DNA of 20,000 nt, from the NCBI GenBank assembly GCA_008632985.1, contig QPGO01000068.1:357564-377563 (forward strand), given 5' to 3'. The DNA comes from Psammoneis japonica (Eukaryota). Within the stretch, counting starts at the first letter, position 1. Every line of letters begins with the position of its first letter. The notes beneath the pieces were generated by a model. The model saw only the letters and a list, made by a program, of their open reading frames with translations, searched no databases and had not been told where the DNA came from. The position numbers and the translations under genes are program-made. This document shows positions 193 to 20,000 of this stretch, piece after piece.

Positions 193-295
193 CTGGGCGT
201 TGAAGGTGAGGCTACTAGAGACTACTGCGAAGCTGTTGTTTTTGTAATGGAGTGGTGTAGACAATAAGAACAAAAAACAAAACAAAAACACTCAC

Positions 296-1475: not shown

Positions 1476-4400
1476 ATGGATGCTCTCGTTAAAGAAATAT
1501 TTACTGCAGCGAACGTTGCGGAGGAAGAAAATTCCGAGAAAAAAGACGCGATGACTCGGTTGGAAGAGTGGCTGGATATGGAAGACAGCAGCGGCGCGTC
1601 GTCTGCAGCAATTACAACATGGACCCCGATGGATTCTCTAGCAACTTGCGACACTCCCCGCTTACTTATGGAAGACTGTGCACCGTTTTCTTGGAGGTTT
1701 TATCAAAGCGTTGGTCGCGTCGTCGTGGAGGCTTGGAACCCGGCTGCTGGCATAACAGATGATGGAGATGGGAAAGCTTTCGTCAACCGCAGCATTTTCT
1801 CGCCGCCATCGCCCAGTGACGCAGAAAATGCCCCACAGGATGTTTCTCTGTTTCAAATAAAATCAGTACGAGTGACAAGGTGGTTAAGGTATTGGATGGA
1901 CTTGAATGTGATGGGCGCAAGTTCTTCGGATACTGCATTGACGACGTTTTCTCAGCTTCTGCTAAGACACTGCGAAGGGAATACATCGACCACAGCAAGT
2001 TCCAGTGATGACGTAAACGAGAAAGAGAAGAACACTATGAATATTGGGAATGGGGGAGAACAACGCAAAGTACCCCGAGTTCATGTTTTGAAAGCACTGT
2101 TTCACCATATTGCAATGTTGCCTCAGATGCAACATCAAATCCATGTGTACACGCAGTCCCTACTCAAAAGCAACAGCAGCAGCCCCAACGGCTCGTCTTC
2201 CAAACTTTCCAATACTCGTCTGGAACAGCTTCAAGCTGCCAACAAAATGACAGATAAGCTGACAGCGGAGTTCGACCTGCATCGTCAACACTTAGAGGAT
2301 ATCTTGGGTGAATGGTATTCAGTCTGCAACTCCACTCTACGAGCCTCTTGTAAGGCACATCTTGGTCGTATTTGGCAAGAATTTATTTATGTTACCTCGC
2401 ATCGAAGTGGTGGCGTGGGTATGGGAAGAATGGAAAACACAAGTGCATGCGGGATAGATTTGACGTTGAGAGTTCTGAACCGTATTCTCCTCGGTGGCAC
2501 GGAATCGTCGTCGCTGAACTCATCCACTGAACATTTGCTTTTCGATGTACTTATTCCACTACACAAACCGTCTGGAATGATACTTTGGCGAGACCAAACT
2601 CCTCTTTTGGATCTCTACCACAAACCTCTGGTTCAATGCATCGGAACCATCCTTCAGAGAAACACTCTTCTTATTCCCAGGGTGGTGTCGCAAATGTTGC
2701 AACCCGACATCTGGCCCTCGAGTCAAGGCGTAGGCTCTGCTTCGGCAAACACACCCAAGGTTGTACTACTATTGCATGAAATCGACACATTTCTCAGTCT
2801 GCTATCAGTGGAAAAAGACAAGGCTGTGATTGATGCCTTTGGCGAAACCGTTGGACCTCTGACGGTGCGCTTGGCGAGCTGTATTTCATCGGACAATTCT
2901 CGCATGTCCGAACAGGCGTTGCAATTTTTCAAGAATGATGTATTTGCGTTTGTGATCAAGCATCATCTATTCGAGACTCTTCCGACACTACTCCGAGCGC
3001 TTTGTCGGACATCTGATCAAATGCAGTTGCCTTGGAACCCAACGGTGCGAAAAATGACTCGACTGGTTCTTCAGGAATTAGAGGGATACGACGAAGATGC
3101 CTTTGCGAAAGCTTGTCATTCCTTGTTCTCATCGGATCTCCCAAATCGAGCTCCTCCCAACGAGGATAAGAAAGAGGCTTCAATTAAACCAGCTGCTCGA
3201 GAAGGGACTGCAACGACAATGAACGAAAAGCAAGACAACGTAGCACCAGTCAAGGACTTTTCCTTGCGTGCAGGTATGGGGAGCTGGAAACCACCATCGC
3301 AGACACGTCGAAGTCACCCAATGAACAAAATGCTACCGCCTCCCGCTAGGTCACCCAGAAGTGGCGGAAAACAGCAACCACCATTGACTGTTACCGGCGT
3401 TGCACCATGGGCCGTGTCCTCCCAACCACCGGGTAGAGATTCTTCGGGTAATCCTCCCCTTACTGTAACGGGCGTTGCGCCTTGGGCAAGTCATCCACCA
3501 CCTTCAGGCTCTATGCGTCCTCCCAGAAAACGAGCCGTGGCTGCGAACGGATTACCACATCGACCAGGTCGCCCGCTCACGGAACAAAACAGCCAGTCAG
3601 CTACGCCCACACTTGATGATTCCGTGCCAACCCCAATCATAGAAGAAGAGGAGGAGGAAGTTGACAACAAGGAAAATGCCGGTCTGGCCAAGGTTCACTG
3701 GTACATGGACAAGCTCAAGCCAGATTCGTCGTCCGATCAAGACGAGGAAGGAACTTCGTCATGGGCACTGGCACAAATGTCAGAATCACCCACACTGCTA
3801 CCCACCTTAAAGTTTCACGATTTGGTGTTTGGTCAAGACCTGGGAAGCGGCGCTTTTGGAATTGTCAGATATGCGCGGCAAATTATCAAGAGCAAGACCC
3901 GCTCACACTGGCCCGAGTACGCTGTCAAGATTGTTAGCACTCAACGTATCGATGAAATGGGGTACGAACAATCGATCAATCGCGAAATCGCAACGCTGCG
4001 GCAAATGTCCCATCCAGGTATTGCTCGGCTCATTTCGTCCTTTCGTTTCCGTGATGGAGCCTACCTTGTGTTGGAATATGCCAGTGGCGGAGATTTGCAC
4101 ACGCTTCTAAAGAATAGTGGATCGCTGGATCAAGACTCTACAAAGTTTGTTGTTGGATCCATTGTAGCTGCATTGGGTAGCATACACGACATGGGCTTTG
4201 TCTACGGAGATTTGAAGCCAGAGAACGTCCTTATAACTGAGACAAATCATATCAAGCTAACTGATTTCGGTGGCTGTCGACCCGTGACATATCACGCTAA
4301 GGAACTGATCCGTTTCAGTGGTAAGAACGCTCTCAAGGAACTGCGCGATGGAGATTGGAAACCGCAAAACAAACCAAAGGACGGAAAGCCCAGCAGCACT

Positions 4401-5078
4401 TGGTCTGCTGGCAATGATAAAGATACAAACAATATGGATTTAGAAGAAGGGGAGGACGAAGAAGATCATAGAATAGAAGGCACCACGGCCTATCTTCCTC
4501 CCGAAGTTGTGATTGGTGCCAGACCCACACTCGCCGCGGATTCCTGGGCTCTCGGCTGCGTCATGTATCAGTGCCTCTCAGGCCGTCCTCCGCTCCTTGA
4601 AGACGACGATGAAATGACTCGAAACAAGATTGTTGCATTTCACCTGTCTCAGCAAGAGCATCATACCCGCGACGCTCTTTTTGAAGATGATCAAACGACC
4701 TTTACTCCGGAAGCACGAGCGCTGGTACTAGGATTGTTGCATCGCGAACCAGCCAGTCGACCAAACATGCCCCAAGTAGCCGAAGACCCATTCTTTGAAG
4801 GCGTGGATGTTCTTTCGTTGCACAAGCACCCTGGCCACCCCCTCGACGTGGGTAGTGTGGCACCCGTGGCAGACGCCAAGTGGTCCCGCAGGCAATTCAG
4901 CTCCATCTGGGCACCTCAGCCCGAGGCCTACATTATCAGCGCACCATCGAGTGACAAGACAATGGGCCCTTCTCAGAACGGCCCAATCCCAGAGGGAGAA
5001 GAAGCTAATGCGTTCTTCTCCAAGAGCCATCAACATTCGTCGTTTGGCAACATTCCAGAAAATGTCCCAGTTTCATAA
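1476..5078 (+). CDS. 1200-aa protein: PP2A regulatory subunit B56(B')-like helical domain, Pro-rich linker, AGC/PDK1-like Ser/Thr kinase domain
   Basis: Uninterrupted ORF. B56-like motifs at ~2440-3115: VLIPLHK, LYHKPLVQCI, WP...NTPKVVLLLHEIDTFL, CISSDNSRMSEQALQFFKN, WNPTVRKMT. Kinase motifs at ~3805-4800: LGSGAFGIV, YAVKI, LVLEYASGGDL, YGDLKPEN, DFG, GTTAYLPPE, DSWALGCVMY. Confidence 0.9.
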   Translation: MDALVKEIFTAANVAEEENSEKKDAMTRLEEWLDMEDSSGASSAAITTWTPMDSLATCDTPRLLMEDCAPFSWRFYQSVGRVVVEAWNPAAGITDDGDGKAFVNRSIFSPPSPSDAENAPQDVSLFQIKSVRVTRWLRYWMDLNVMGASSSDTALTTFSQLLLRHCEGNTSTTASSSDDVNEKEKNTMNIGNGGEQRKVPRVHVLKALFHHIAMLPQMQHQIHVYTQSLLKSNSSSPNGSSSKLSNTRLEQLQAANKMTDKLTAEFDLHRQHLEDILGEWYSVCNSTLRASCKAHLGRIWQEFIYVTSHRSGGVGMGRMENTSACGIDLTLRVLNRILLGGTESSSLNSSTEHLLFDVLIPLHKPSGMILWRDQTPLLDLYHKPLVQCIGTILQRNTLLIPRVVSQMLQPDIWPSSQGVGSASANTPKVVLLLHEIDTFLSLLSVEKDKAVIDAFGETVGPLTVRLASCISSDNSRMSEQALQFFKNDVFAFVIKHHLFETLPTLLRALCRTSDQMQLPWNPTVRKMTRLVLQELEGYDEDAFAKACHSLFSSDLPNRAPPNEDKKEASIKPAAREGTATTMNEKQDNVAPVKDFSLRAGMGSWKPPSQTRRSHPMNKMLPPPARSPRSGGKQQPPLTVTGVAPWAVSSQPPGRDSSGNPPLTVTGVAPWASHPPPSGSMRPPRKRAVAANGLPHRPGRPLTEQNSQSATPTLDDSVPTPIIEEEEEEVDNKENAGLAKVHWYMDKLKPDSSSDQDEEGTSSWALAQMSESPTLLPTLKFHDLVFGQDLGSGAFGIVRYARQIIKSKTRSHWPEYAVKIVSTQRIDEMGYEQSINREIATLRQMSHPGIARLISSFRFRDGAYLVLEYASGGDLHTLLKNSGSLDQDSTKFVVGSIVAALGSIHDMGFVYGDLKPENVLITETNHIKLTDFGGCRPVTYHAKELIRFSGKNALKELRDGDWKPQNKPKDGKPSSTWSAGNDKDTNNMDLEEGEDEEDHRIEGTTAYLPPEVVIGARPTLAADSWALGCVMYQCLSGRPPLLEDDDEMTRNKIVAFHLSQQEHHTRDALFEDDQTTFTPEARALVLGLLHREPASRPNMPQVAEDPFFEGVDVLSLHKHPGHPLDVGSVAPVADAKWSRRQFSSIWAPQPEAYIISAPSSDKTMGPSQNGPIPEGEEANAFFSKSHQHSSFGNIPENVPVS

Positions 5079-5187
5079 GATTAGACTAGAGGGTCGCTTC
5101 GAGCTATCTACTACCTACTAGTTACTAGAAAGCGCACACAATACACCAGTCATTCTTTCTTTTTCAGTTTTACTTATTATTTGCAAG

Positions 5188-5739
5188 TTAACCAAAGTAG
5201 GTGGTGGGCCTGACAGTCGTAAAGGTACGATCAGAAAGAGCCTTTTGTCCGCGCTTTCCTGATGCCACCCTGTGGCTGAGAGGGAACTTGACCTGACTCT
5301 TGGCAAACTGCATACCATTCGTACGCTTCAAATCCTTGGCTCCCAAGACACTCGTCCTAATGATTTGAATAGAACGGGGACGAGTGCGGTGCCTTCCCGC
5401 CATTTCATCGTACAGCTGCGACACGGCGCCCGTGATGGACACGTCACGATACTCTCGGTACATATTGTGCGTGCCGGACCGAGACGAGTAGCGGAGCCAA
5501 ATGCCGTAATTCTTGACAATGCGCGAGTTCTTTTCGACAATCTCCACAACGTCCAGAATTTCACCAGTCGTCTTTTTCATCTTGCGAAATTGATGGAGGT
5601 AATACCAGAACTTGGACTTGGCAATCACCTGGTTGGGAGCAAAGATGATCATGCGGTAAGCCTCGGGGTTGGCATCGTCTTCGGTGGGGGCTTTACGGCC
5701 CACCACCTGATATTGGCGCATAACTCCTGCAACAGTCAT
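5188..5739 (-). CDS. RPL18A: 60S ribosomal protein L18a (eL20)
   Basis: MRQYQVVGRK, IFAPNQVIAKSKFWY, KMKKTTGEIL, VKNYGIWLRYSSRSGTHNMYREYRD, MAGRHR, KFPLSHR and RPTTYF are hallmark eL20 motifs. Confidence 0.97.
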   Translation of the reverse strand: MTVAGVMRQYQVVGRKAPTEDDANPEAYRMIIFAPNQVIAKSKFWYYLHQFRKMKKTTGEILDVVEIVEKNSRIVKNYGIWLRYSSRSGTHNMYREYRDVSITGAVSQLYDEMAGRHRTRPRSIQIIRTSVLGAKDLKRTNGMQFAKSQVKFPLSHRVASGKRGQKALSDRTFTTVRPTTYFG

Positions 5740-5740
5740 T

Positions 5741-6072
5741 CTGGAAAAGAGAAAAAATTAAAGTAAGAGAGGGTCAGCTGTGAATTGACTTTTGCGTGTT
5801 GTTGTGAGGGAAAAAAGTGGGCTCAGATCCAGATCATGATTTCTGAGCAGGTTGTTCGAGAAAACAATCACAACGACGGTGTTTCTTTTCACATTGTCAT
5901 CAGAGCGACTCAGAAAAACACACGCCATGAAGCATACAAGAACGACTGACTCTATATCAGCGAGTTTTCAACAAACGTCGAGCCGTCGATATAAACACAG
6001 TCATGGTCGCACCTTGCAGAGATTTGCGTCTCGCAGTTCGAGCGGCGATGTGAAATCTCGTGTACAACTCAC
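5741..6072 (-). other. Probable 5'UTR intron of RPL18A
   Basis: On the minus strand: GTGAGT donor at 6072, branch-like GCTGAC near 5775, long polypyrimidine tract and TTTTCCAG acceptor ending at 5741, one nt before the ATG. Confidence 0.7.
5821..5906 (-). ncRNA. Candidate intronic box C/D snoRNA
   Basis: Minus strand GCTC-TGATGA (box C, 5902-5897) ... CTGA-GC (box D, 5826-5823), 86 nt, ending ~80 nt upstream of the 3' splice site of a ribosomal protein intron. No rRNA target recognised. Confidence 0.35.
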
Positions 6073-6373
6073 GTAGAACCAGTGTTGAACAGCGCAAGTA
6101 AGCGGTAACCTGTTGCTACCATACGCGCGTTCCTTCCAACAAAATCGCGCTTGAAGAATCATCAATCTGTGTGTCAGTTTGACCATTTTGTGGTGTTTAG
6201 TGACCGTTCCACTTTGAGACAAAAAAGCGGCGCGCGGACACCAAAAATCTTCAGAAGCACATGGCGTTCGCTGGTACAAAAATGACGTAGAATCTACGTA
6301 GGCACTGAAAAGTAAAACTCTTTTTCAATCCATATTTTTGTTGTTGCTGAAGTTGTTGTCAAGCTCTGTTACC
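6073..6373. promoter_or_regulatory. Putative bidirectional promoter and 5'UTRs for RPL18A and SUMO
   Basis: About 300 bp between the RPL18A intron donor and the SUMO ATG, divergent orientation. Confidence 0.5.
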
Positions 6374-6796
6374 ATGTCGGACGAAGCCGCTGTCGGAGAA
6401 GAAACCAAAGCAGACGGATCTGAGCCCATTACGATCCGTGTCCGTGATCAGGTATGGCGATACGGTAGAGAGCGCGTTGTGCTTTGGCTACGAACTACCG
6501 ATGAGAAGCTCCATGACCGTGGACGCGATTTTAGGCGTGAAACACTCACACACACGCGCTTGCTTGTTTGCTTTTTTCTACTGTAGACCGGCGAAGAGAC
6601 GTTTTTCAAGATCAAAAAGACGACGAAACTGTCCAAAGTCTTTGATACCTACGCTTCGCGAAAGGGCGTTCAATCCACATCGCTACGCTTCTTGATGGAC
6701 GGCGAACGTGTCGAGGGAGATCAAACACCCAAAATGCTCGAGTTGGAAGATCAGGATCAGATCGATTGCATGTTGGAACAGACGGGTGGAATGTAG
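6374..6796 (+). CDS. SUMO: SUMO (small ubiquitin-like modifier), 95 aa; exons 6374-6451 and 6587-6796
   Basis: Intron 6452-6586 (GTATGG...CTGTAG). Spliced product MSDEAAVGEETKADGSEPITIRVRDQ-TGEETFFKIKKTTKLSKVFDTYASRKGVQSTSLRFLMDGERVEGDQTPKMLELEDQDQIDCMLEQTGG-M* has the SUMO QTGG end. Confidence 0.96.
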
Positions 6797-7700
6797 AGAA
6801 TACGAGAGTATGTTATGATGTGGTGTTGTGTGGTTGTACGGTGATTGGTGGATCAAGCACACAGCGGTAGTTCTTTGTAATGCTTATTGTAGTCGGGTAT
6901 GATTTGCAAAACAAGCTCTGTGTTCTTGGCTATCCTTTCCGTATGATTGCGTGTTGGTGGAATACAAGACTTACGCCAGACATGTATAAGTACCCTTGTT
7001 GCGTTGCTCGAATCTGCAGCGCTATTTTGAATTTTGATTCGAATTTGGCGTCGTCGAGAGCAACGCTAGAAACGAAAGACCGTTGTGCGCTATGTTAAAT
7101 ACTTGAGGGTTCAGATCCTTTTCTCTCACGTCCAACTAACCGAGTCAATGTATTACGAAAAAATGGAATCCAGAAGCTAGAGTATGCCGTGTACGGGTAG
7201 AATCTACTGTGGTTATTTCAACCTGGAAGAGGTCGTCCTGTGAACGGCACTTGTAATCTTACGAAAGTACAAAGACCAACTTTTCAAAAGAAACAGGAGT
7301 AGGCGGAATCAGAGAGTATTTCCGTACATGTTGAGTGACTTAAAACCCTCTCAAAAAGAAGATAGGCAGGCGGGCAAATCCCTTTGAACCAGAATCCCGG
7401 ACTCCTATAATCTAGAAAAGTGACGACACGGCAGAACGAATCTAACGCTCTCAATCTTAAAAGAAACATTGACACTAAAAATCCGCATCAAGCTTGCGGC
7501 CTCGTTGAAGGATGATGTATAGCTGGGGTATCTCTACTAGCCCTAGAGCTTGAGCTGCTGTACAGACGATGGACAGCAGAAGTAGATGAATTACTTCTGT
7601 GCAGGTGCACAAATCAAGCAATGCTTCCGATGGATTGTGCTTCTGTAAAACGTCAGTGTTGTTCTTATTGTAGAGCATTTGACACTCTATCTACCGGCAG

Positions 7701-7748
7701 TAGCTAGCTACAACTGCTCTAGAGCTCTACTCTCTCTACTAGAGCAGT
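7701..7748. repeat. CTAG-rich palindrome and inverted repeat at the host/repeat boundary
   Basis: TAGCTAGCTA palindrome (7701-7710), plus ACTGCTCTAG (7713-7722) / CTAGAGCAGT (7739-7748), a perfect 10-bp inverted repeat. Confidence 0.8.
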
Positions 7749-7789
7749 AATAGAGACAACATAGAGTGGCGCAGCACGCTCCTTCTTGT

Positions 7790-8841
7790 GCGCAGTTTCC
7801 CGACGTCACAGCTCTTCGCCTGCAATTTTTTGCCTCAGTGGCTGGAAGTGGCTCTTGCAGCTTGTTGGCTCTCATTTCTTAGTTCTCACTTGCATCTTCT
7901 GAGTGTTCCAACCATTCGGTTTTGTCATGGGAAGCAAACAACTCTCCAGCTGGCTCTTGGGTTTTGCCTGCTCACGTGTCGCACCCACAATTCCGTGGTG
8001 ACCCCCTGTCACTCCAGTTGTGTTGAGAGCCCCTGCAACCAACATTTTTCCTGGCCAGCACAGTGAGATCTTTCGTTTGTGCATGTCAAAAGGGGGTGGG
8101 AAAATGAAAAATTGATGTTTTACAAGTCTGGATTTCTTTGCTCTGCCTTGAATTGCTTGCATTCTGTGACCATGCACCGCATGATTGTCCATGTGCAACG
8201 TGCGCACTCAGCATTTTTTAGCCTTTTCATTGCCCCAGCTCTTCTGTCACTTGTTGCTTCAGTGGCTGTTTGATGCAAGTGCTTGAGACACTGAGGTCAA
8301 AGCCAGAAGAATGAGGGGGCACTCTTGCCAACACAAACAGCAGCCTGGTTTGTGGGGCCAGCCACACCACACTCTTCCTTGAGCTTGCATTTTGTCAACA
8401 AGACACCACACATGCAGCAGCTTGCCTCTGCTGCAATGTTTCAAAGCAGGAGGCTGTTTTGATGACAGTTGTTTGCTGAGAATGTGACATTTTGTGAGAT
8501 TGCCCAACAACTGGGAAATGCACCTTGCAATGCTGCAAAGGAACACCTGGCAAAAAGACCCCCTGTTCTGGGACAAAAAGTGGTGTGCATTTTCAAAATT
8601 TTTGTGCTCTGGCCCATGCTGCTGGCTGGTTTTAATTCGTTCAAATGAACTTCAATCACAACTTGCACACCCGCTGATGCTGGTCCCTTCACTGTTGTCA
8701 AGGTTGCTGTGGGGCCATCCATTTGCAAGTCAATGTCATGACACCACAGGCAGCGGGGAGAGGGGCTGGGTGGAACATTTTCACAGTCCAAGCAGTCTGG
8801 GCAATGCTCTTTTTTGATTTTGGGATGCACCTTGTTGTGCC
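7790..8841. repeat. Degenerate unidentified repeat/TE remnant, strongly depleted in both TpA and CpG
   Basis: Only ~4 TpA and very few CpG (none seen in 8221-8630). Minus-strand Cys/His-rich ORF fragments (8441-8830, 8259-8576) with no recognised family. Confidence 0.5.
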
Positions 8842-9029
8842 TGACAGGATGCCGAAGGTCAATGATGACAGATGCATGAAAGACTCCCCAAGCGCCAGGG
8901 ACTGTGATGACACGAGCACTGGCAGATGAGAAAGTGAGAGGCAGATCTCAGAGAGATCTGCTCGTCTGTCTAAATGGTCTGGTCATCATCCATGTGCAGT
9001 CTGTCCATCACATGACATGCAGACTGACA
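8842..9029 (-). repeat. Putative 3' LTR of element 1
   Basis: Minus-strand TGTCAG starts directly after the PPT at 9029 and a plausible ...CTGTCA end lies at 8842. Internal hairpins GCAGATCTC-aga-GAGATCTGC (8941-8961) and CAGTCTG/CAGACTG. The 8842 end is uncertain because the second LTR is not in the window. Confidence 0.6.
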
Positions 9030-9038
9030 CCCTCCCCT
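9030..9038 (-). other. Polypurine tract of element 1
   Basis: AGGGGAGGG immediately followed by TG, about 160 nt after the pol stop. Confidence 0.75.
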
Positions 9039-9197
9039 GATCTGCAATGTCTCAAAATAGAAGACAGTGTAGATCAAAACAAGAACAGGGATGATGCAAA
9101 TGGAGCAACCAGAAGAAGGACACCAAAGGTGTCCAAGCCCAATGCGCATCAAACAACGGGGCAATGCGCAGCAGGAGAGGCTGCCATGGAAAAAATG

Positions 9198-12100
9198 TCA
9201 ATGGCAGTGTCCCATCACACGTTGAGTGTGGCGAGTGTGGAGCACCCACCCAAGAGCCTTGGCAAGGTCATTGCTGGGGTTGACAATGCCAGGGATGTGT
9301 CTGGTGACAATCTTGCCCGCTTCCTTCCATTCTTGAATCGCGAAGAACTGAACCTCAATGTGGTGCGAACGCTCAGTCGGAATCGAATGATTGATGATCT
9401 TGATGGCCGATTCGTTGTCAACATGCAAGGGGGTTGGCTTCATTTGGGAATGACCAAGGTCATGCAGCACATGGCGGAAGCAAAGAACATGCTTGGCAGT
9501 GGCACCAGCAGCATGGAATTCTGCTTCTGTAGAACTCGCAGCGGTCACCGACTGCGTCTTGCAATGAAAGGAGATGGCAGCACCAGCCAACATGCAAGCA
9601 CATCCCATCATAGAATGTTGATTACGAAGATCATTTCCACACACAGCATCAAGGAAGGCAACAAGTTGATGGTCACACTCAGGAGTGGGGAATGATGGGA
9701 GAGGAGCGGGGAATGACGGGAGAGACGGATCGGGACTCAAGCATTCACACGGATGGGCAGGGAGGCTCGGGTCACGTTTAGATTTCTTGTGGTTCAATTC
9801 CCAATGTTTGGCACATCGGAGACACTTGCGTGCACCCTTGAGTGCATCGCAGTGCACTGCCGCAGGGCAAGTGGAGAACTTGGAAAGGGCAGTGATGGCA
9901 TGGCCAATGTCGAGTCGACAGACAACATGTGCATGCAACAGCTCACCAGGGAGGGTGTGGCATCCAAAACCAGCAGCTTGTTGCAGCTCCACATGTTCCG
10001 GTGTACCTTCAGCAGGACCAATGTCAGTGTAAAGATCTCGAACAGAATCCACCGGAATTGGAGTCGCCTTGAAGTCATCAAGCAGTTCTTCATCACTTGG
10101 CGCAGACCAACCGCATGAGAGGCAAACACGGTCAATGTAATTGTAGATGGCGACACCAATTGAATCATCATGCTGATGGACATCCACACCATTGAATTCC
10201 TCCAGGAGGCCAAGGTGCTTGAAAGGCGGAGCAGTTTCCGAGTCCAGTTGAAGGGCTTTGCCAATCCTGTCACAGATTGCATTGGCAATGGACTCCCCGG
10301 GGCAAGCAATGGCAAAGTCATCAACCTGTTGAAGGAGCAAAATTTTGTGTCCTTCAAATGCAGCAGAGCAGATGCATTTGTCGTGAGCAGTGTTCCGGAA
10401 TAAAAGATTCACATCAGATGAGACACCATCAATGTGATTCTCCCAGAGCATGCCGGCTTCTGGGTGTCCTTGAAGAGCATGTTGCATGGGAAGTGCCATG
10501 CTCCTGTCCAACTCCTTTCCAAAGTGAGACTCATGCCAAGTCGCATGTGCATCGTCAACAGCAACATGGACAGGATGTGACGGGCAGGGAGAATGGGCAC
10601 AGGCATCGCGGGCATCACTGCCATGTGCTGGACAACCCATTGCAGCTGCCAGGGCAAAGAACATCTGTTGGATGGGTTGTTCAACACAGGAGGAGCATGT
10701 TGAACAAAGATGATGGAGAACAAATGCAGCACGAGGGGATCCGTTGCAACACTGACGAGAGCACCGCGCACTGTCATGTTTGAGGTCATGTTGCCAGTGT
10801 GGTCTCAGTGCAACTGCATCCTTTGGATGTTTGATGGGAGCACCAAACATGCCCAACTCATGAAACTGGTCAAGTTGTTTAAATTCACCCATGCGCCATT
10901 CAGGCCAAGTGTCCAATTGCTTGAGTCGATGGCGAGTGAAGGTGCCCAAGGCTTGTTCCTCTGGGGCAATTGCGCGGGAGGAGATTGCATGGACTTTGAC
11001 GACACCATTGTTGTGGTCAACATGTGCAGGTGGCAGGACGTTGTCATCATCAATGGCTTCGAAATCAGCACTGGGATGGCGCACCGCAGCAATGGCACGT
11101 GTGTCGGCCTGTGCAAGCTCCGGGACATGTTCATCATCAGGGTCCAGGGTGGGGGAGAAGATGTCATGTTCCATCAGAGCATGTTGGAGAGCTTGAGAGT
11201 CCAAGCAACGTTCTGGCGTGAATTCAATTTCAAAATGTGTCTTGCCAGACTCACGCAACTGCTGGAAATGCTTGACAGCATCATCACGGGTAAAAACTGG
11301 TTGATGATCAATCGATGCAACACACGCGCCTTTGATCTTGTTGCGGGTTGCCTTCAAGTTCGAGAAAAGATGATCAGTGGGGGAACCACGTTTGATGTCC
11401 GAGACGAAAACACGTTGGCACAGATCATCCACAGCCAATGAGAAGCCATGAGAGGGATCCGTGAAAGGTCCTTTCATGGCACGTGTGATGGTCTTGGCAA
11501 AAGGGTTACCATGAAAGTGAAATTCATCCACAGTGGTCTCTTCAGTGTCGGCAGGGAGGGCATCACCAGCCTGAGCACGTTGCAAATGAACAACATTCGG
11601 GGGAATAGAGTCGTGGGGTAAATCATTCATCCCCTCATCACATCTGATGTGCTTGGCCAGCTCAACACGCGATGTCTCAGTGTCGCACCACAAAATGTTC
11701 TTGGTGGCATCCGGAAGGCATCCCAAGAAAATCCCTTTGCGTGATGCGGTCCGGAATTTTGCCGGACGGTGATTCAAAGCACGCACCCAAACGCGACAAC
11801 CAAACGTGTGGAAGTTCCGAAAATCATCCTTCTGACCAGCAGCAAGTGCAATCGGAGCAGCAGTCTGCCCCCGGGATGGCATGGCATTCTTGATCCGAAT
11901 GAAGTGATGGAAAGCATGGGGCCAAAACTTGATGGGTAAATCCGCACCAACAAGCATCACCTGAATGGCATTGGCAATGGTCAAATGACTCCGTTCAACT
12001 GGGCCACTCTGATTCGAAGCGTCTTTTCCAGTGGGACGAATTGCACAATGAAAGTCATCCTCGAAGAGTCGCCGAACTTCTGGGTTCTGACATGACTCAC

Positions 12101-14325
12101 CTCCTTGATCCACAAATGCATGTTTGTCTGGACATTTTGGCGAGTGCTCTTCCAGAAAGTGGCGAATCCAATTCAAAGGGGTTGCCTTGGAGACACGAGT
12201 CGCACCATGGAGATGCTTCGTTTTATGATCATAAATGGCAATCCAACAAGTCTCGCCATTCAATCCAACACAGTCCTTGGTGCGCTCCGAGTTCTTGGAG
12301 CGTAGGCCAGAGAAGGAAAAATCAATCGTAAGGCCTTGGCATGGTTGGGTGGCAGTGAGAGTGGTGTTCGGACCGGCAGGTTCCTTCGTCTGCTTGGCTC
12401 GCATGCATGTGGGACAAGTGTCGAGAGGAGAAGTTCCGTGGGCAAACTTGGGGACGCCATCAACATGTTCATGGGCATGATGAAGGCAGTGATCACTCGG
12501 ATGACCAAGTCGCTGATGCCACAAAAGACGTTCCGTGTCGGCCTTGAGAGACTGGACAGGAATGTTCTTCTCAGCATGCTTCTCGAAAGGAACATCTTGA
12601 CAGACACGGGGGATCAACTTGCATTCATCACGAAGAGCTTCATGTTGGTGGGTGCGACAAGTCTCAATCACACACGCAGAGACCGCTTCACACTCATTGG
12701 CAAAAGAAGGATCAGCAGTCTTGAGGCGCTCGACAGATGCATCCAGTTCGTCGTTAGATTCCGGGAGAATGAGAGGGTGAGCAAAACATTTTCCATTGAT
12801 CAATTTTCCATGAATGACAACATCCTGACTCTTGCGCAATCGGTGTCGTGCAACAAACTTGCAGGCACCAAGATCATGGAACTTGAGAATGCAATCGACA
12901 TTGCAATCTGTGAAACGAGAACCATTTTGACGAAGGAGGAGTCGCTCATCGACCAACGTAGATTGGATCTGTGGGTGGCAGCATGCACGGACCTCAACAT
13001 GGCCATCAGAGTTCTCTGCAGGGATGCGAAGACAGCCGAATCCAACTGGGACAGCTTGGTGGCCAAGGGCCGGGTTGACAGCAAGGGGACAGGGATGGGA
13101 CGGAGTGAAGTCTTGGCAGCAATGGAGGAGGTCACGGTCGCCTGCACATGCAATGTTGGCACCTGCATCCAACTGAGCACAACGTTGATGCCACAAAAGG
13201 CGTTCCATGTCGGCCTTGAGGGATTGGACGGGAATGTTCTTCTTGGCGCACTGCTCAAATGGGACATCTTGAAATGCTCGGGGAATCAACTTCCTTTCCA
13301 TGCAGAGAGCATCATTTTGGCATGCACGATGTGTTTCAATCATGTGGGCCGAGACTGCTTCACATTCATCCACAAAGGAGGGGTCACTTGCCTTGAGGCG
13401 CTCGACAGATGCATCGAGCTCATCATGGGATTCTGGGAGAATGAGTGGGTGAGTGCAACACTTGCCATTGGTCAATTTCCCATGAATGACGACATCCTGA
13501 CTCTTGCGCAAATGATGCCGTGCAACAAACTTGCAAGTGCTGAGGTCATGGAACTTGAGGATGCAACCAACATTGCAATCCATGCGACGGGCACCATCCT
13601 GTTGGAGCAGCAATCGTTCATCAACCAAGGTAGATTGGAGCTGTGGGTGGCAATGCGCACAAATCTCAACATGTCCATCAGAGTTCTCCGCAGGCATGCA
13701 AAGACATCCAAAGCCAACTGGGACAGCTTCATGTCCAAGAGCTGGATCAACAGCAAGCGGGCATGGGGCAGAAGGAGCAAACGCCTGGCATCAATGTAGG
13801 AGATCACGATCTCCAGTGCAGGCAACATCAGCACCAGTGTCAAGTTGAGCACAGCGCTCATTTGGGGCAAACTTGACACCATTGACAGCGCAGGCAGTGC
13901 GGAGCAGATCTGGTGGATCCAAGTCATCATCATGCAGTGAGCCAAGCGGGGCAATGCAGACAGAATTCACTGCGGTGAAACCATCCTCAACAGCAATGTC
14001 GTCATGGGTGAGATCAACGAACTTGGCAAATTCACATCCCTCTAAATCTTCCCTCCCCTGTTCTAAAGAGTCCAGAACAGGATCAATCTCCAATGTGCCA
14101 TCAGGGAGAACAGGATCGTCATCAGGCAACTTGGTGGTGTCAGGAGAGACCTTCGAGTCGGGGGTGCAGTCCGCATCAGTCGTCGAAGAAAGAGGCAGCA
14201 CAGTGGCAGATGACGAGACGGTTGGTCCCTCTTTCACAGTCATCCCGCTGACATTGGTCTTGTCTCAGTGGGCAGAGAATGGGCTGCATCGGAGATCCGA
14301 AACTAGCTGCGACGGCCCGACTGAA
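9198..14325 (-). pseudogene. pol: pol of element 1 (two protease copies, integrase, RT, RNase H)
   Basis: LDTGA and LDAGA protease motifs; WHQRLGH...CPTC; TIDF / VDQGGE / GPVERS (DDE integrase); ALQGHPEAG and LLQQVDDF (RT); SSTEAEF, VDNES and HIEVQFFAIQEW (RNase H). Same frame throughout, with two in-frame TGA stops (~14265 and 13791-13793), probably from CGA. Confidence 0.9.
12514..13857 (-). repeat. In-frame 672-bp (224-codon) tandem duplication of protease plus pre-integrase linker
   Basis: TGATGCCACAAAAG at 12514 and 13186. The protein block CAQLD[T/A]GA...QSLKAD[M/T]ERLLWHQR occurs twice. Confidence 0.95.
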
Positions 14326-15769
14326 AATCTGAAGACTGGACACCAGCACTGGGTGGAGAATCAGATGGGGCTTGATGAGGCGGCAACAAACCTTGTGGTC
14401 CTTGAAATTCAGAGGCTTGCATGGCCGCTTCGCGCTTCAAAAATTGACAAAAACGCACATGGAAGCCCTCATTGTATGGGTTGTTGTTCAAGACAGGACA
14501 GTCATGGAACAAGTGCTCGTCAGAACAAACAAGGCATGGTTTCTTGGAGGCCTCTGTGGGAGCAACCTTGAGTTTGTGTGCCAAAGCTGAGCAGACATGA
14601 TGAAGGAGACGATCTTCATCTTCTGTGGAAGGTGCGTCAAGGTCATTCAATTCAGCACAGAGGGAGTCAAAGGTGTCCTCGGGGGAGTTGTCGATGTTGG
14701 TGGCTTCAGGCAGCTCGTCTGCATCCTCTGCAATGGGAGGGACATCCGGAATGGTCAAGGAATTGACATCGGCAGTGGTGCGACGCGCATCGCCTGGGTG
14801 TCGATCCCATGTGCGGCATGGATTGCAAGGAGTCGCACGGGTTGCAAGAGATGGACTGTCCAACTGACGAAGGAAGTCAGACAGAGTCTCAACAATCTGT
14901 GCACCCGTGTGCTTCTTGAGCATGGCAGGAGACTTCCTTTCGTCCCTGGCAGCACGGGATAAGAACTTGGAGCATTTGGTGTTCTTGATAAAAACAGTCA
15001 TCTCTTGAGAGTCATCCAACGTAGAGTCCGCATTAAAGATGTGAGCACGCAGCTGTAGAAAATCCTTGAAACACAAGCGACAGTCCGTCAATGACAGATT
15101 TCCTTGAATGGGGCAGGAATCTACCAAACCAGCAGCCTCGTGATTGAAAGCCGGGTGGTTCTCGCAGACAATTTGCTTGAGAGCCTTGCAGCCATTGCCA
15201 TGGCATGAGGCAACAATCCGATGATGCTTGCTGTTCTTGGGGAACACATCAGACTTGGAAAGGATCTTGTGAAGGGAACTTTGTGCTTCTTTACAATGAA
15301 CATACATTCGTTGGGGCAAGTCATCGTCTTTGCCATTGCCAATCTCAAAACCCTTCTCACCACCATGGTCCTTGGTGAAGCACCACAAAGGATGCACGCA
15401 GCATCCTGAGTCAAAGGAGTGACGTTGAAAATTTTGGTGCCATGCACGTGTCCCAGCGGGAGAATCATCATGGCAGATTGGAGGTTCCCTGAATGGCATC
15501 TTCTGGTCAGGGGCCGAGCTCATTGTAAACAGGGCACCATCATTGAGAATGATGCGGTCAGACGCATCAACATGGTGGCGGAATCCATGGCCACAATGGA
15601 CTGGGGAGCTCTTCAGGGTGACGGCACCATGTTCTTTGCAGTCGTAGCATGTGCAAACATCAGGAGGCAGGGTGTCAGGATTGAAGAGACATTTGAATGC
15701 TGTGGAAGATGCAGGAGTTCCAGAGGTCTTGCCAGAGGAGTCACGAGTCAACAACCGAGTCTGATTCAT
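14303..15769 (-). pseudogene. gag: gag of element 1 (5'-truncated or interrupted)
   Basis: 488-aa ORF directly upstream of pol with a zinc knuckle CLVCSDEHLFHDC, ending SDFQSGRRS*. Strongly Tyr-poor and His/Cys-rich. Confidence 0.8.
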
Positions 15770-15814
15770 GGATGACGCTTCCGGTCATGGATCTCTTCTT
15801 CCGGAAGAAATGTC

Positions 15815-16023
15815 TGTTGAGTCTTCTAGCGACAGTAATCGGAGTGACACACACGACCGTTAGGTCATAATGTCATCTCCAATCCCTCGTGAGATCTTCT
15901 CACAATTCGTATCTTTGGCGCATCTCATTGTCCCAAAACTGCTTCTTGTCATCCTCTGTTGCATTGTACAACCTCAAGAGAGTCCTGAACTCTCCATCCT
16001 ACACAGTGCATTGTTGTATCCCA
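15815..16023 (+). repeat. Putative 5' LTR of element 2
   Basis: Starts TGTTGA, where the composition switches, and ends ...CCA two nt before a TGG-starting PBS-like motif. Alternative starts at 15811 or 15871. Confidence 0.5.
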
Positions 16024-16025
16024 AG

Positions 16026-16038
16026 TGGTTACGACCCC
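16026..16038 (+). other. PBS-like motif TGGTTACGACCCC
   Basis: CA-ag-TGG arrangement typical of copia LTR/PBS junctions, 180 nt before the gag ATG. Priming tRNA not identified. Confidence 0.5.
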
Positions 16039-16109
16039 AATCCACGCACCGGTGTCAACTCGTAACGGAGTTGCTGCCACTCGTTCGTCTCGTTACAGAC
16101 GACATCCTG

Positions 16110-16193
16110 TCCAACGGCGATCTTCTACATCGCAATCCAACGGCGATCATCTATGTCGCAATCCCCACCTGCTAATCGATCCTCTATGTCGAA
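16110..16193 (+). repeat. 26-bp tandem repeat (2 copies plus a partial third) in the element 2 leader
   Basis: TCCAACGGCGATCTTCTACATCGCAA, TCCAACGGCGATCATCTATGTCGCAA, then CGATCCTCTATGTCGAA. Confidence 0.85.
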
Positions 16194-16205
16194 TCATCCA
16201 CAACC

Positions 16206-19200
16206 ATGTCCATGGATCCTGATGCCGTCAAGATGTTTGCTGAGGCCTTCGCCAAGATGCAAACCTCGACCAACCCTCCTACGATCCCCACGCCGCTTCG
16301 CGGCGGTATCCACCACTCTCATGGAGTGCATCTGGGTGGTTCGGCTCTGAACAACAAGCACGAGCAGACCGACACCCGCACCCACCGTTTTGCCTCGCAA
16401 CGTCGCCATCCGAAAGCTGTCGACTCTGTCGAGCAATCTCTCAGAGATCAACTCGCTTCGGCAACCACATCCAAGTTCAACGGCCAGATTGAGTTGTCCA
16501 ACGGTTCCAGTGCTGAACTGGACAAAGACCACTTCGTCAAGACCATTCAGGACTTGATCGAGTCGCACGGACAAGAAACTTTCTACCATCTCAAGAAAGT
16601 CGACGGCAAGGTCGTGCACCTTTTTGATCATCTTCACGCCTTCACTGTCAAAGACCTTGAGAAGGAACATGAGACCCGTGTGGTGGCCACAGGTGACGAA
16701 GGCTACGATCAGTGTGAAATCGATGACATTGGCTTGTCACAACTCATCATCAAGTCGCGCATCACCGAAACCTTCCGTGAAAAGATTGAAACCAAGTTCA
16801 ATCACTTGAAGAACTGCAAGGATCTTCCGGGGTCTGTCTCATTTATGATGGCTCTGGACACCTGCAACGCCAGTGCTCTGGTTGACGTCAAGGCCGCCAA
16901 GGAAAAGTTGAACGACTTAACTCTGGACACCTGCCCTGGTGAGGACTGCACCGAGCTTGCAACCGAAGCTCTGCGCCTGCTCAAGATCATGCAGACGGAC
17001 TGTGTGTCACCAGTTGAAACTGGGTCTGCCATTTCATCTAAGGTGTCAAAGACATCCTCCGAGTTTTTCAATCGTCAAGTTTTTGCCAAGCTCGACTCCG
17101 TCAAGCGCTTGGAGCGCAAATGTTGCTTGCGTGACCCGGCAGAAGTCCCCAAGGATGCCGACTGTGCGGATCTTGGACCTGTTGGCCTTGTTGGCTGGAT
17201 CACCAAGACCCGTGGCGAACTCATTAGCGATGAAGATTGGCCTGCCTTAGCAGCCAAGCTCCCGGAATCCAACCTCGCCAAGGACAACTCGGAAAAGCAT
17301 TGCTGCGGCTGTGGCAAGGTTGGGCACACCAAACGCACGTGTCCTGCCTGCAAGGAGCAATGCAAGAAGGACAAAAAGGGCACGGCGGACAAGTCCAAGG
17401 ATGACCCTCCGGATGTCCGGAAGACCAACCCTTCCAAGAAACCACCCAAGCCGGCCTGGCGTTTCGTTCACAAAGGTGCCACTGTCACCGACGAGAAAGG
17501 CATGACCTGGCACTGGTGCGACAAGTGTGTGAACAAGGAAACGGGCAAGAAGGGCATGCATCAAGGCCACTCCTCTGCTCAACACACCGGGAAACCGTCT
17601 GTCAAAACCGAAACCACCGCTGTGGCAAATTTATCTGCTGTGTCGGACCCCTCTTCAGGCATTCCTTTTGGTCCTCCCGAGCAGACAACGTCTCCACCTA
17701 CAGACGAACCCTCTGACCCTAACGAGCTGGTTCACTGCGGCATGTGGTGTGCACCTGTGGACGACTCTTTGAGCTCGACTCCAGTGACTACGACCGTCAC
17801 GTTCACTCCTGCTCCATTGGCCGAGAGGGAGACTGCCGTGGCCAAACCCGCTCCCATCTTGGTTGAAACAGTTGACCCCAAAGACGCTGATGATTGCTCC
17901 AAGCACTCCGACGCTCACTCCTCTTTTGACTCCCTGCCGTCAGCTGTCGAGCCATTTCCGGCCTGTGCCATGCATGAGATTCAAAATCCGGACGTGTTTT
18001 ATGACACGATCGCAACTCACGTGGAAGGTCTGTCCGACGACGTGTTGGACGATCTCGTTTCCGGGGCAAGCATCCCACCTTTCGAAGACAGCTACGAGCA
18101 CTTACCTCCAAGCACCCAGTGTCGCGGTTTCGAATTTTACGATCCCGAACCCCAAGATGTTGATTGTGGCGTCGAGGAGGCAACGCCGAGCTCTCGTCTT
18201 GAGCTCTTCTGGAACTTCTTGAAGCTCCAAGTTTTCTGGCTGTTTGCCATGTTCTGGGAAACGGCACCACACATTTGCTGTGCGCCGATTCCTGTCTTGC
18301 CTCGTCGCATGCGCCGCAAGGCATTCATCCCAACCATTCACGGTTTCCCCTCTACCTGGATGGTGCTGACTGGAGCTGTCATGGTCTGGGCGTCTGTTTT
18401 CAATGGTCAGCTTCCCACGTGTCCATTCTCCAATGTCCCCTCTCGCTTCTCCAAAGCCAGCTCTCAGGTCCACTCGATCATTGAAGAACTGGACGACAAG
18501 ACAGTGTCAGATCCGGGCAGTTTGGTGGAACACAACAAGATCAAGGCGCGACAAGTGCTTGCCGAATTTGTGGAGCGCGATCCGGACCATTGTCTGAGCA
18601 AGAAATTCATGCAGCTCTGGGAGAACGACGTGTGCTCTTCCCCAGGCCGCTGCATCCCTCCAGCTCTAGAAGACCCCGAGTCCCACTTCGACACCTGTGA
18701 TTCAGAGGAAGCCCTCGGCCCGCTCCCGACCGAGCCGAGCCACTGCTTTGATGCGGTTGAGGAGCTCTCTCCGGACTGTTTTCGTTTCGACGAGCTGTCC
18801 ACCAAGTTTGGTTTCGTGGACACCACTCCATGGCAAGACCCTGTGAAGCTTCTCCAGGCAGCTGCTGACGGAACTGAAGCCCATCCTGCTCATGCCTCTG
18901 TGCAGGTGTTGACAGGCCAACGTTCTTTAGCACAACTCGCCGCCGACCCGCAAGCTTTGCTGAGCCCAGCACATGAGCGCCACACCGTCACATGCGACAC
19001 TGGCGCATCCTTGGCCATTGCTTACGATGAAAACGACTTTGTCGGACCTCTGACGATCCCTGATGGCCCATTGAAGCTTGGGGGTCTAGCAAATGGCTTA
19101 ACCATCGCCGGCATCGGACCCGTCTCCTGGGTTTTCCACAACGAGGATGGCTCTGAGCTCGTCGTCAAGACGATGGCGCACCATGTGCCTCAGGCCGGAC

Positions 19201-20000
19201 AACGTCTTCTATCCCCACAACGCCTCCACAGCAAGGAACATGGCGTGACAGGAAAATGTGAGGGAGACGAGGACTCATTTCGAGTGCACATTGATGGCGC
19301 CGGTTCGCTCAAGGTCGCGCACGCGTCAAATCACTTGCCGGTTGCGTCTGTGACCAACGGGGTGGCACCCGCTCCTCAAGTCAATCTGTCTGTGTTGCAC
19401 GAGGACAACCAGAACCTCACCACCGGTCAGAAGCTCCTTCAAGAATGGCACTTCAGGTTTGGTCACCTGAACATGCCACGCATCCAAGGCCTGCTTCGGG
19501 CCGAACCTTTTCTCCGACCCAAATTCAAGCATGCTTCGCGTTGCGACATTCCGCGGTGCGAGGTGTGCGAATGTGCCAAAGGACATCGCCGAACCCTCAA
19601 GTCTGCCAAACATGCGGCTACTCCAGAGCGTGAGGGTGCTCTTCGAGCCGAGCATCTACGCCCAGGCCAAGCCGTCAGCGTGGATCACTTCGAATCCCGT
19701 CTCCTCGGCCGAACCTGCGACTCCTGCGGGAAGGCCTCGTCCCAGCAATGCAAAGGAGGCTGCATTTTTGTGGATCATGCCTCCGGTTACCTGCATGTTG
19801 AACACCAACTTGGTTTCTCTGCTGTGGAAACGGTGCGAGCAAAGCAAGCGTTTGAAAAGCACGCGATGGACCACGGTGTCATCATCCAAGAATTTCTTGC
19901 CGATTCTGGCACTTTCAAGGCCAGTGCTTTTGTGCAACACATGCGACAGCACGAACAACGTCTACGTTTTTGCGGAACCAACGCCCACCATCAGAACGGC
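16206..20000 (+). CDS. gag-pol: gag-pol polyprotein of element 2 (apparently open for 1265 codons to the window end, hence absent from the ORF track; probably non-functional through missense hypermutation)
   Basis: MSMDPDAVKMFAEAFAK start; zinc knuckle CCGCGKVGHTKRTC (17301-17342); protease VTCDTGAS (18987-19010); WHFRFGH...CEVC; integrase VSVDHFES, GCIFVDHASG, LADSG and AHHQNG, all in the frame of the ATG. Confidence 0.88.
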   Translation, partial: MSMDPDAVKMFAEAFAKMQTSTNPPTIPTPLRGGIHHSHGVHLGGSALNNKHEQTDTRTHRFASQRRHPKAVDSVEQSLRDQLASATTSKFNGQIELSNGSSAELDKDHFVKTIQDLIESHGQETFYHLKKVDGKVVHLFDHLHAFTVKDLEKEHETRVVATGDEGYDQCEIDDIGLSQLIIKSRITETFREKIETKFNHLKNCKDLPGSVSFMMALDTCNASALVDVKAAKEKLNDLTLDTCPGEDCTELATEALRLLKIMQTDCVSPVETGSAISSKVSKTSSEFFNRQVFAKLDSVKRLERKCCLRDPAEVPKDADCADLGPVGLVGWITKTRGELISDEDWPALAAKLPESNLAKDNSEKHCCGCGKVGHTKRTCPACKEQCKKDKKGTADKSKDDPPDVRKTNPSKKPPKPAWRFVHKGATVTDEKGMTWHWCDKCVNKETGKKGMHQGHSSAQHTGKPSVKTETTAVANLSAVSDPSSGIPFGPPEQTTSPPTDEPSDPNELVHCGMWCAPVDDSLSSTPVTTTVTFTPAPLAERETAVAKPAPILVETVDPKDADDCSKHSDAHSSFDSLPSAVEPFPACAMHEIQNPDVFYDTIATHVEGLSDDVLDDLVSGASIPPFEDSYEHLPPSTQCRGFEFYDPEPQDVDCGVEEATPSSRLELFWNFLKLQVFWLFAMFWETAPHICCAPIPVLPRRMRRKAFIPTIHGFPSTWMVLTGAVMVWASVFNGQLPTCPFSNVPSRFSKASSQVHSIIEELDDKTVSDPGSLVEHNKIKARQVLAEFVERDPDHCLSKKFMQLWENDVCSSPGRCIPPALEDPESHFDTCDSEEALGPLPTEPSHCFDAVEELSPDCFRFDELSTKFGFVDTTPWQDPVKLLQAAADGTEAHPAHASVQVLTGQRSLAQLAADPQALLSPAHERHTVTCDTGASLAIAYDENDFVGPLTIPDGPLKLGGLANGLTIAGIGPVSWVFHNEDGSELVVKTMAHHVPQAGQRLLSPQRLHSKEHGVTGKCEGDEDSFRVHIDGAGSLKVAHASNHLPVASVTNGVAPAPQVNLSVLHEDNQNLTTGQKLLQEWHFRFGHLNMPRIQGLLRAEPFLRPKFKHASRCDIPRCEVCECAKGHRRTLKSAKHAATPEREGALRAEHLRPGQAVSVDHFESRLLGRTCDSCGKASSQQCKGGCIFVDHASGYLHVEHQLGFSAVETVRAKQAFEKHAMDHGVIIQEFLADSGTFKASAFVQHMRQHEQRLRFCGTNAHHQNG

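Follow-up and report, generated by a model that had tools for sequence, protein, structure and literature searches.

Results

TpA is nearly absent from two copia elements and the DNA beside them

Two Ty1/copia-type retrotransposons (elements 1 and 2) and an adjoining non-coding stretch in the genome of the diatom Psammoneis japonica have lost most of their TpA dinucleotides through mutation. They lie in a window of 20,000 nucleotides (positions 357,564 to 377,563 of contig QPGO01000068.1, forward strand), whose coordinates are used below. Comparison with partly depleted relatives uncovers a neighbor rule that operates equally on both strands, whereby an adenine preceded by T is converted preferentially when a pyrimidine (Y) follows it (T-A-Y). 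With a probability of roughly 0.6, we favor a reading in which the elements and the stretch 7766–8890 were hypermutated at TpA only, under this rule, by a host enzyme.

The host genes at 1–7765 provide an internal control with a TA rho of 0.60 and a CG rho of 0.99. TA rho is 0.06 in 7770–8890, 0.10 in element 1 (8891–15800), and 0.14 in the body of element 2 (16321–20000, forward strand), the stretch from which this analysis started; the corresponding CG rho values are 0.27, 0.57, and 0.85. Across these three depleted stretches TG rho is 1.42–1.68 and CA rho 1.25–1.87. Between the two element bodies lies an island, 15801–16310, in which TA rho is 0.55 and CG rho 1.11. The left border of depletion is sharp, and 7766–8890 contains 4 TpA (rho TA 0.06, CG 0.27, TG 1.68, CA 1.87). 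Directly outside the depleted zone, 7646–7762 holds 15 TpA in 117 nucleotides, mainly in repeated CTAG and CTAC words, which makes the contrast across the border extreme. CpG is depleted in 7766–15800 (rho 0.27–0.57) and near normal in element 2 (0.85), though both are poor in TpA; either TpA is lost faster than CpG decays, or element 2 is a younger copy or one free of methylation.

The TpA sites that survive share a sequence context. An earlier note on this DNA, made from the sequence alone, had observed that all of the roughly 26 TpA in the element 2 body follow C or T. Our count agrees: 26/26 read YTA (14 after C and 12 after T), 17 as YTAY and 9 as YTAR, where R denotes a purine. The contrasting claim that about half of the TpA in the host kinase gene are RTA is likewise correct (62/114 in the open reading frame (ORF) at 1476–5078). 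For the oppositely oriented element 1, the note gave about 29 of 37 survivors as TAR on the forward strand; between 8000 and 15800 we count 34 of 43, the difference being one of border choice only. These sites are YTA on the sense strand of the element, and 3 of the survivors are RTAY. The chance of 26/26 YTA is 7e-7 if the expected share is the 0.58 found for the sense strand in unmutated relatives, and 1e-9 if it is the host share of 142/313. Counted without regard to strand, survivors in the window comprise 20 YTAR, 47 mixed (YTAY or RTAR), and 3 RTAY sites, compared with a starting composition of 0.15/0.54/0.31. Within 7770–9197, which is mostly non-coding and includes the 3' part of element 1 (8891–9197), the survivors are 4 YTAR, 3 mixed, and 0 RTAY.

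Depletion was caused by mutation rather than codon usage

The proteins encoded by the two elements demonstrate that mutation, not codon usage, depleted TpA. At 24 columns in which Tyr is found in at least 80% of 40 relatives, element 1 encodes 11 Cys (TGY), 9 His (CAY), 2 Phe, and 2 Tyr. Sixteen such columns in element 2 (threshold 70%, 27 relatives) contain 7 His, 6 Cys, 2 Phe, 1 Ser, and no Tyr. For both elements combined, conserved Tyr changed to Cys in 17 columns and to His in 16, which together account for 33 of 40, and 38 of the 40 Tyr are gone. Conserved Trp is kept in 15/15 columns of element 1 and 8/8 of element 2, and conserved Gly in 47/51 and 36/39. Tyr, Cys, and His make up 0.3%, 4.9%, and 7.4% of the element 1 pol protein and 0.6%, 3.4%, and 5.1% of the element 2 protein; relatives of the elements contain 2.4–5.0% Tyr and 1.1–2.3% Cys. 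Mutation of TAY codons to TGY or CAY went against function and left the elements dead, with frames that are still open only because TpA loss cannot create stop codons.

Other codons bear on the bases around the changed adenine, and they agree with the neighbor rule. Conserved Thr, Ile, and Met columns in the window, where C or T comes after the first-base A, exhibit an A>G change at that base in 20/93 codons; 15 of the 20 are preceded by T. Conserved Asn and Lys columns, where another A comes next, changed in 3/66 cases (p = 0.0026). Tyr codons that follow a purine became His 11 times and Cys 7 times, and those that follow a pyrimidine 5 and 10 times, a difference in the direction expected from the rule but non-significant (p = 0.17).

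Element 1 contains a tandem duplication, located upstream of the integrase, whose halves align without gaps and are identical at 515 of 674 positions. The halves differ by 19 CA/TG doublets, compared with 2.08 expected from column shuffling (maximum 9 in 2000), and no TpA differences are left between them. These doublets mark sites at which the same ancestral TpA was struck on opposite strands in the two halves, and they speak for independent hits. Genomic copies of the elements, recovered from sequencing run X1 (the one public run listed for this stretch, with no RNA run among the listings), also differ by CA-to-TG changes at adjacent positions 9748/9, 16359/60, 16383/4, and 19139/40, which were seen among 40 of 1901 differing places.

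Partly depleted relatives lose TpA selectively

We collected 79 loci of related copia elements from metagenome contigs, most of which have a TA rho of 0.5–0.8 in the matched coding part. Several loci are depleted, including L032 (0.10), L011 (0.22), L043 (0.28), L040 and L064 (both 0.29), and L018 (0.31). The share of YTA rises as TA content falls (Spearman −0.42, p = 1.6e-4; 77 loci with at least 15 TpA), and the sense-strand densities of the four context classes are given in Table 1. The starting composition on the sense strand, taken from unmutated relatives, is 31% RTAY, 11% RTAR, 43% YTAY, and 15% YTAR.

Loss was measured by comparing 11 of the 16 loci with rho below 0.45 to the nearest normal relative of each, with normal–normal pairs of similar divergence as controls. 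L059, L063, and L077 were left out for low identity or short alignment, and L048 and L078 had no normal partner. Strict polarization against the majority of normal family members yielded only 13–52 ancestral TA per locus, and the pairwise comparison with controls was used instead. Relative to controls, TA was kept at a ratio of 0.45, and each of the other 15 dinucleotides at 0.86–0.98. The depleted loci have 884 TA sites in their partners, of which 266 became TG and 231 became CA; the next outcome accounts for 41. A>G change after T reaches 0.313 compared with 0.103 in controls, and it is near the control level after A, C, or G. The change is confined to TpA and occurs by transition to TpG or CpA.

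Table 1 Density and fate of TpA by sense-strand context in related copia loci.
Context	Density per kb, loci of rho 0.55–0.65	Density per kb, loci of rho <0.25	Partner sites	Kept	To TG	To CA	Kept in controls	Ratio to controls
RTAY	12.0	1.3	292	40	109	108	0.67	0.20
RTAR	4.1	1.0	93	25	14	34	0.46	0.58
YTAY	16.7	5.7	350	150	109	60	0.74	0.58
YTAR	5.9	2.9	144	48	33	28	0.65	0.51

A neighbor preference with RTAY as the hottest target, which the earlier note had deduced from the survivors, is borne out by these comparisons. RTAY was kept at 40/292 sites, compared with 223/587 for the other classes (p = 1.6e-14), and was the most lost class in 11/11 loci. The check that the note had called for, a per-context measurement of NTAN loss, was run against the nearest normal relatives and found the 16 contexts unequal (chi2 82, df 15, p = 3e-11). 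The companion proposal that YTAR is the most resistant context stands in part: the density gradient and the strand-neutral survivors agree with it, but the control-normalized ratio of YTAR (0.51) does not exceed that of the mixed classes (0.58).

The rule reads T-A-Y on either strand

Each TpA contains two adenines, one per strand, and we scored them separately. Adenines before Y were converted at 361/1024 sites and those before R at 134/724 (odds ratio 2.4, p = 9e-15). This effect of the +1 base has an odds ratio of 2.1 on the sense strand and 2.7 on the antisense strand, and controls are flat at 0.11–0.13. By +1 base, conversion is 0.34 for C, 0.36 for T, 0.19 for A, and 0.18 for G. The base at −2 has no effect (odds ratio 1.01), and those at −3, +2, and +3 have little. 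The products mirror the preference, as YTAY yielded 109 TG and 60 CA compared with 14 TG and 34 CA for RTAR (p = 2.6e-5), and RTAY yielded an even 109 and 108. A +1 pyrimidine is preferred in each of the three codon phases of either strand (p < 0.01 in 5/6 tests), the phases being approximate in that partner sequences contain frameshifts.

The rule is accordingly T-A-Y for both strands, which makes RTAY hot twice and nearly wiped out, makes YTAR cold twice, and leaves YTAY and RTAR with one hot side each. The absence of RTA among survivors is the mirror image of the hot T-A-Y on the other strand.

The flip of survivor context with element orientation had been ascribed to either template-strand bias or codon usage in the starting sequence. 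Codon structure is the main cause: YTAY (43%) was about four times as frequent as RTAR (11%) on the coding strand before mutation, so survivors are YTA on the sense strand in either orientation. Template-strand bias is disfavored by the similar preference on the two strands (2.1 vs 2.7). Element 1 fits a symmetric process, with RTAR survival of 0.19 and YTAY survival of 0.18 of the estimated start.

Since YTA already made up 58% of TpA on the unmutated sense strand, starting codon usage, or selection that keeps TA codons, might be thought to yield all-YTA survivors with no neighbor preference. The fourfold excess of YTAY over RTAR does explain the orientation flip. As a full account, this is very improbable. 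The 26/26 YTA in element 2 departs from the 0.58 share (p = 7e-7), loss normalized to partners is unequal among contexts with RTAY the most affected in every locus, and the effect extends to every codon phase of both strands; normal–normal controls lack it. The mostly non-coding DNA of the window displays the same pattern, and the loss of 38 of 40 conserved Tyr rules out protection of function by selection.

Single events on duplex DNA are favored over editing of RNA or cDNA

Lost and kept sites are randomly interspersed in the depleted loci. Clustering of lost sites was found in none of the 11 loci, and same-strand runs of neighboring events were found neither in the 11 loci (lowest p 0.37) nor in the element 1 duplication. 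This lack of strand coordination, together with equal use of the two strands, favors many single events, accruing slowly on duplex DNA, over a burst on single-stranded RNA or cDNA.

The distribution of spared DNA bears on this point. The island at 15801–16310 would contain 17 or more TpA at the density of the element 2 body with a probability of 2.8e-7. Four RTAY sites lie within it, including GTAT at 16307, just left of the start of the depleted body at 16321. The island probably comprises the 5' long terminal repeat (LTR) of element 2, the primer-binding region, the leader, and the first 100 nucleotides of the ORF, and its depth bins in run X1 are 2900–4500. It also contains a 26-nucleotide tandem repeat at 16110–16161, a TGG-starting, primer-binding-like site at 16024, and a segment (16000–16199) with a CG rho of 1.40; a 14-nucleotide palindrome lies at 15796–15809. 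In L011, 475 nucleotides past the ORF (4263–4737) are spared, with 23/32 TA kept compared with 31/129 in the body at 991–4262 (p = 1e-6). The tail of L043, a sister copy, is not spared (6812–7169; 5/21 kept vs 37/160 in the body). The hypermutated tracts therefore have borders that are specific to each copy.

In another explanation, a deaminase acts on element RNA or single-stranded cDNA in every cycle of retrotransposition, much like APOBEC3 or ADAR in other systems, and the edited copy is then integrated. The targets are retroelements, and copies differ from one another at TA-derived sites. Terminal regions are the least edited in APOBEC3G-type cDNA editing, and here the presumed 5' LTR and leader of element 2 and the L011 tail are spared beside hypermutated bodies. 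Nevertheless, we judge this explanation unlikely. Editing of a single strand yields same-strand runs, of which the 11 loci have none, and both strands changed equally under the same rule (RTAY, 109 TG and 108 CA; odds ratios 2.1 and 2.7; Tyr to Cys 17 and to His 16). Moreover, the L043 tail is not spared, and 7766–8890, which is non-coding and for most of which the run X1 contigs yielded no close second copy, is as depleted as the elements. The same signature is also reported to arise in integrated single-copy DNA of the chlorarachniophyte Bigelowiella natans (10.64898/2026.01.13.699255).

Identity and copies of the elements, and the host genes

The features of the window are compiled in Table 2. 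Copia polyproteins of Nitzschia, Cylindrotheca, and Fistulifera align with the element 1 pol protein over its full length and are up to 55% identical to it (1363 bits). In copia order, the pol protein matches the Pfam families gag_pre-integrs, SH3_retrovirus, and RVT_2, the last at 28.8 bits, under the cut-off of 31.6. The gag-like ORF and 13791–14243 have no Pfam match. Open frames of up to 487 amino acids run antisense to element 1, among them 12336–13799, 8904–9695, and 13873–14571, all on the forward strand; these are not genes but by-products of DNA free of TAA and TAG.

The ORF of element 2 is open for 1264 amino acids within the window and encodes a gag region with a CCHC knuckle, a protease, and the start of an integrase. 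Its gag_pre-integrs match is weak (20.9 bits), and 35 copia relatives, one from Fragilaria, align over most of its length at 34–43% identity. Elements 1 and 2 are unlike at the DNA level and represent separate copia families. No LTR pair was found within the window by repeat search or BLAST; element 2 exits the window, and the 5' end of element 1 abuts element 2. Metagenome loci L043, L011, L040, and L014 likewise have no LTR pair.

Table 2 Features of the window.
Feature	Position	Strand	Details
Host diatom genes, internal control	1–7765	.	Pfam matches
Spermidine synthase	292–1059	−	Pfam match
B56-plus-kinase ORF	1476–5078	+	Pfam match
RPL18a	5188–5739	−	Pfam match
Non-coding stretch, nearly TpA-free, CpG-poor	7766–8890	.	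Sharp left border at 7766
Element 1, hypermutated Ty1/copia-type retrotransposon	8891–15800	−	pol ORF 13697–9198; gag-like ORF 15769–14303
Tandem duplication inside element 1	12511–13856	−	Two 674-nucleotide halves overlapping at 13183–13184
Unmutated island between two hypermutated bodies	15801–16310	+	17 TpA
Element 2, second copia-type retrotransposon	16206–20000	+	ORF continues past window end

Copy number was assessed in run X1 with contigs at least 80% alike, 3527 of which were placed on the window. Host DNA has a depth of about 60, and the summed depth over the elements is 895–4661. Given these depths and the number of contigs, both families are multi-copy and consist of many diverged genomic copies. 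Some copies of element 1 appear to be free of the internal duplication, as a joint of 12835 to 13518 occurs in the run. A single contig of depth 60 spans 1269 to 8924; depth bins over 7766–8890 are 72–83, and for most of this stretch the contigs include no other copy that reaches 80% likeness. The ORFs in 7770–8890 have no Pfam match. The stretch 7766–8890 may be flanking DNA that was reached by the process or an old element with copies now too diverged for the 80% threshold.

The named closest relatives of RPL18a are from diatoms (a metagenome-assembled genome (MAG) labeled Bacillariaceae, Mayamaea, Seminavis, and others). The intronless ORF at 1476–5078 encodes 1200 amino acids that join a PP2A B56 regulatory-subunit domain (residues 270–553) to a protein kinase domain (from about residue 784), an unusual fusion. 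ARAGORN found no tRNA in the window.

Among relatives of the diatom elements are two copia polyproteins (P0019 and P0036) labeled as belonging to a Flammeovirgaceae bacterium MAG, which probably come from diatom contigs binned into a bacterial genome. A further tract, of 1.9 kb, adjoins the partly depleted copia element of L040, which comes from an unrelated sample. This tract (4020–6099) has 2 TpA, a sharp left border, and rho values of 0.02 for TA, 0.16 for CG, 1.74 for TG, and 1.98 for CA, the same signature as window positions 7766–8890. Among the best 150 representatives of the element 1 polyprotein in a library of 1.84 billion proteins, 4 have less than 1% Tyr, and Cys is raised in 3 of these 4.

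Discussion

Directed hypermutation against mobile DNA is established in fungi, through repeat-induced point mutation (RIP), and in animals, through APOBEC and ADAR enzymes. Our reading of the diatom elements is that a host enzyme would act site by site on integrated duplex DNA. This agent would most likely be a TadA/ADAT-type adenine deaminase; the inosine that it makes would be copied as G to give A>G on either strand, and the hypermutation may serve as a defense against mobile DNA. The process would be of the same kind as the TpA hypermutation of Bigelowiella.

For giant-virus and virophage DNA integrated in mutation-accumulation lines of B. natans, 230 of 231 de novo mutations are reported to be A>G or T>C, all at TpA, and the agent put forward by the authors is an ADAT2-like DNA adenine deaminase (10.64898/2026.01.13.699255). 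As that preprint describes it, the resemblance is close. Both systems convert TpA to TpG or CpA by A>G or T>C, with TpA down and CpA plus TpG up, and both are confined to foreign or mobile DNA beside ordinary host DNA; here TA rho drops from 0.60 to 0.06 at position 7766. Low-TpA genes of Bigelowiella are reported to be enriched for reverse-transcriptase and DDE domains, and the targets here are copia elements. The two cases differ in that Bigelowiella is a rhizarian and the present host a diatom. They differ further in that the preprint follows giant-virus and virophage inserts in real time, whereas our data consist of multi-copy LTR retrotransposons and the end product alone. Depletion is also deeper here, at a rho of 0.06–0.14 compared with the 0.45 given for the Bigelowiella viral region. 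The main text of the preprint uses none of the terms 'context', 'flank', and 'tetranucleotide', so that the T-A-Y rule, its symmetry, and the absence of runs do not appear there. Within the literature we found the signature only in this preprint and no report of TpA hypermutation in diatoms. The case joins a very recently described kind of TpA hypermutation; what is new is the host lineage, the target type, the neighbor rule, and the lack of strand coordination.

Fungal RIP provides a second comparison. Like RIP, the process produces dinucleotide-targeted transitions on both strands of repeated or mobile DNA, has sharp borders, and leaves the elements dead. Unlike RIP, which changes C:G to T:A at CpA and thereby creates TpA and stop codons, it destroys TpA and raises G+C, so that no stops are made and frames stay open on both strands. 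APOBEC3 and ADAR share with it a deaminase-type hypermutation of retroelements with a nearest-neighbor preference, and ADAR is stated to favor U before the edited A (10.64898/2026.01.13.699255, Discussion). These enzymes work on one strand in coordinated runs, unlike the equal and uncoordinated use of strands found here; APOBEC alters C and not A, and ADARs are animal enzymes.

Decay of CpG through deamination of 5-methylcytosine resembles the present process in striking a self-complementary dinucleotide on either strand by uncoordinated single transitions into TG or CA. CpG decay accompanies TpA loss in 7770–15800 (CG rho 0.27–0.57). It differs in the base that is affected, and element 2 combines a TA rho of 0.14 with a CG rho of 0.85; this sets the two processes apart, with TpA loss probably the faster.

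Native TadA is reported to depend on UACG, and the evolved TadA-8e to prefer UA (PMC12296453). TadA, ADAT2-ADAT3, and the base editors require T or U before the target A, which fits T-A-Y. The match is to T-A-Y and not strictly to T-A-C, as T at +1 (0.36) is as good as C (0.34). The natural substrate of TadA and ADAT is a tRNA loop and base editors use single-stranded DNA; action on the chromosome, as we propose for the diatom, would be a departure from both.

Several points weigh against this reading. A purely regional process on DNA does not predict the spared island at 15801–16310 or the spared tail of L011. A model of two independent half-site rates fits poorly, as the loss of RTAY exceeds the product of its two half-sites. 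Element 2 retains 0 RTAR where about 4 are expected, which hints at a small residual strand asymmetry. Relative to estimated starting numbers, survival of YTAY and YTAR in the window is similar (0.28 vs 0.41 in element 2 and 0.18 vs 0.22 in element 1). Metagenome copia families other than the window's own supplied the measurements behind the rule, and diatom hosts are assumed for these loci from homology alone. Polarity comes from the nearest normal relative, calibrated by normal–normal pairs, and not from a tree. Low TA content was the criterion for picking the depleted loci, and inherited changes may be common to some of them; L011 and L043 were both compared with L008, and L035 and L040 both with L045.

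Finally, an adenine-centered T-A-Y and a thymine-centered R-T-A fit the sequence data equally well, for A before Y on one strand is T after R on the other. The T of R-T-A might be modified, for example to hydroxymethyl- or formyl-uracil by a TET/JBP-like enzyme, and mispair with G to give T>C. Thymine modification is enriched at TpA in another lineage related to alveolates and stramenopiles. We regard this chemistry as quite unlikely. The preference for C or T after T-A matches the UACG and UA motifs described for TadA (PMC12296453), and the Bigelowiella preprint argues, without proof, for adenine deamination (10.64898/2026.01.13.699255).

Returning to the adenine deaminase, the broadest form of the proposal is that diatoms defend themselves by erasing TpA on the chromosome with a TadA/ADAT-like enzyme, a defense shared with chlorarachniophytes that is old and widespread in algae of the stramenopile–alveolate–Rhizaria group. 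This proposal is possible, and we offer it tentatively. The signature occurs in a second, unrelated algal lineage, in diatom retrotransposons as well as in diatom-like copia elements of several metagenome samples, and it is a candidate for a widespread eukaryotic defense in ecologically dominant algae. For those who annotate genomes, TpA-free DNA carries a warning: it keeps long frames on both strands, with Cys or His in place of Tyr, so that gene callers and family models can be misled. The neighbor rule is a testable enzyme footprint that fits tRNA-type adenine deaminases. If the proposal is true, such a defense would be a GC-raising counterpart of RIP that kills elements without stop codons, and the surviving TpA would be a direct footprint of the enzyme's specificity.

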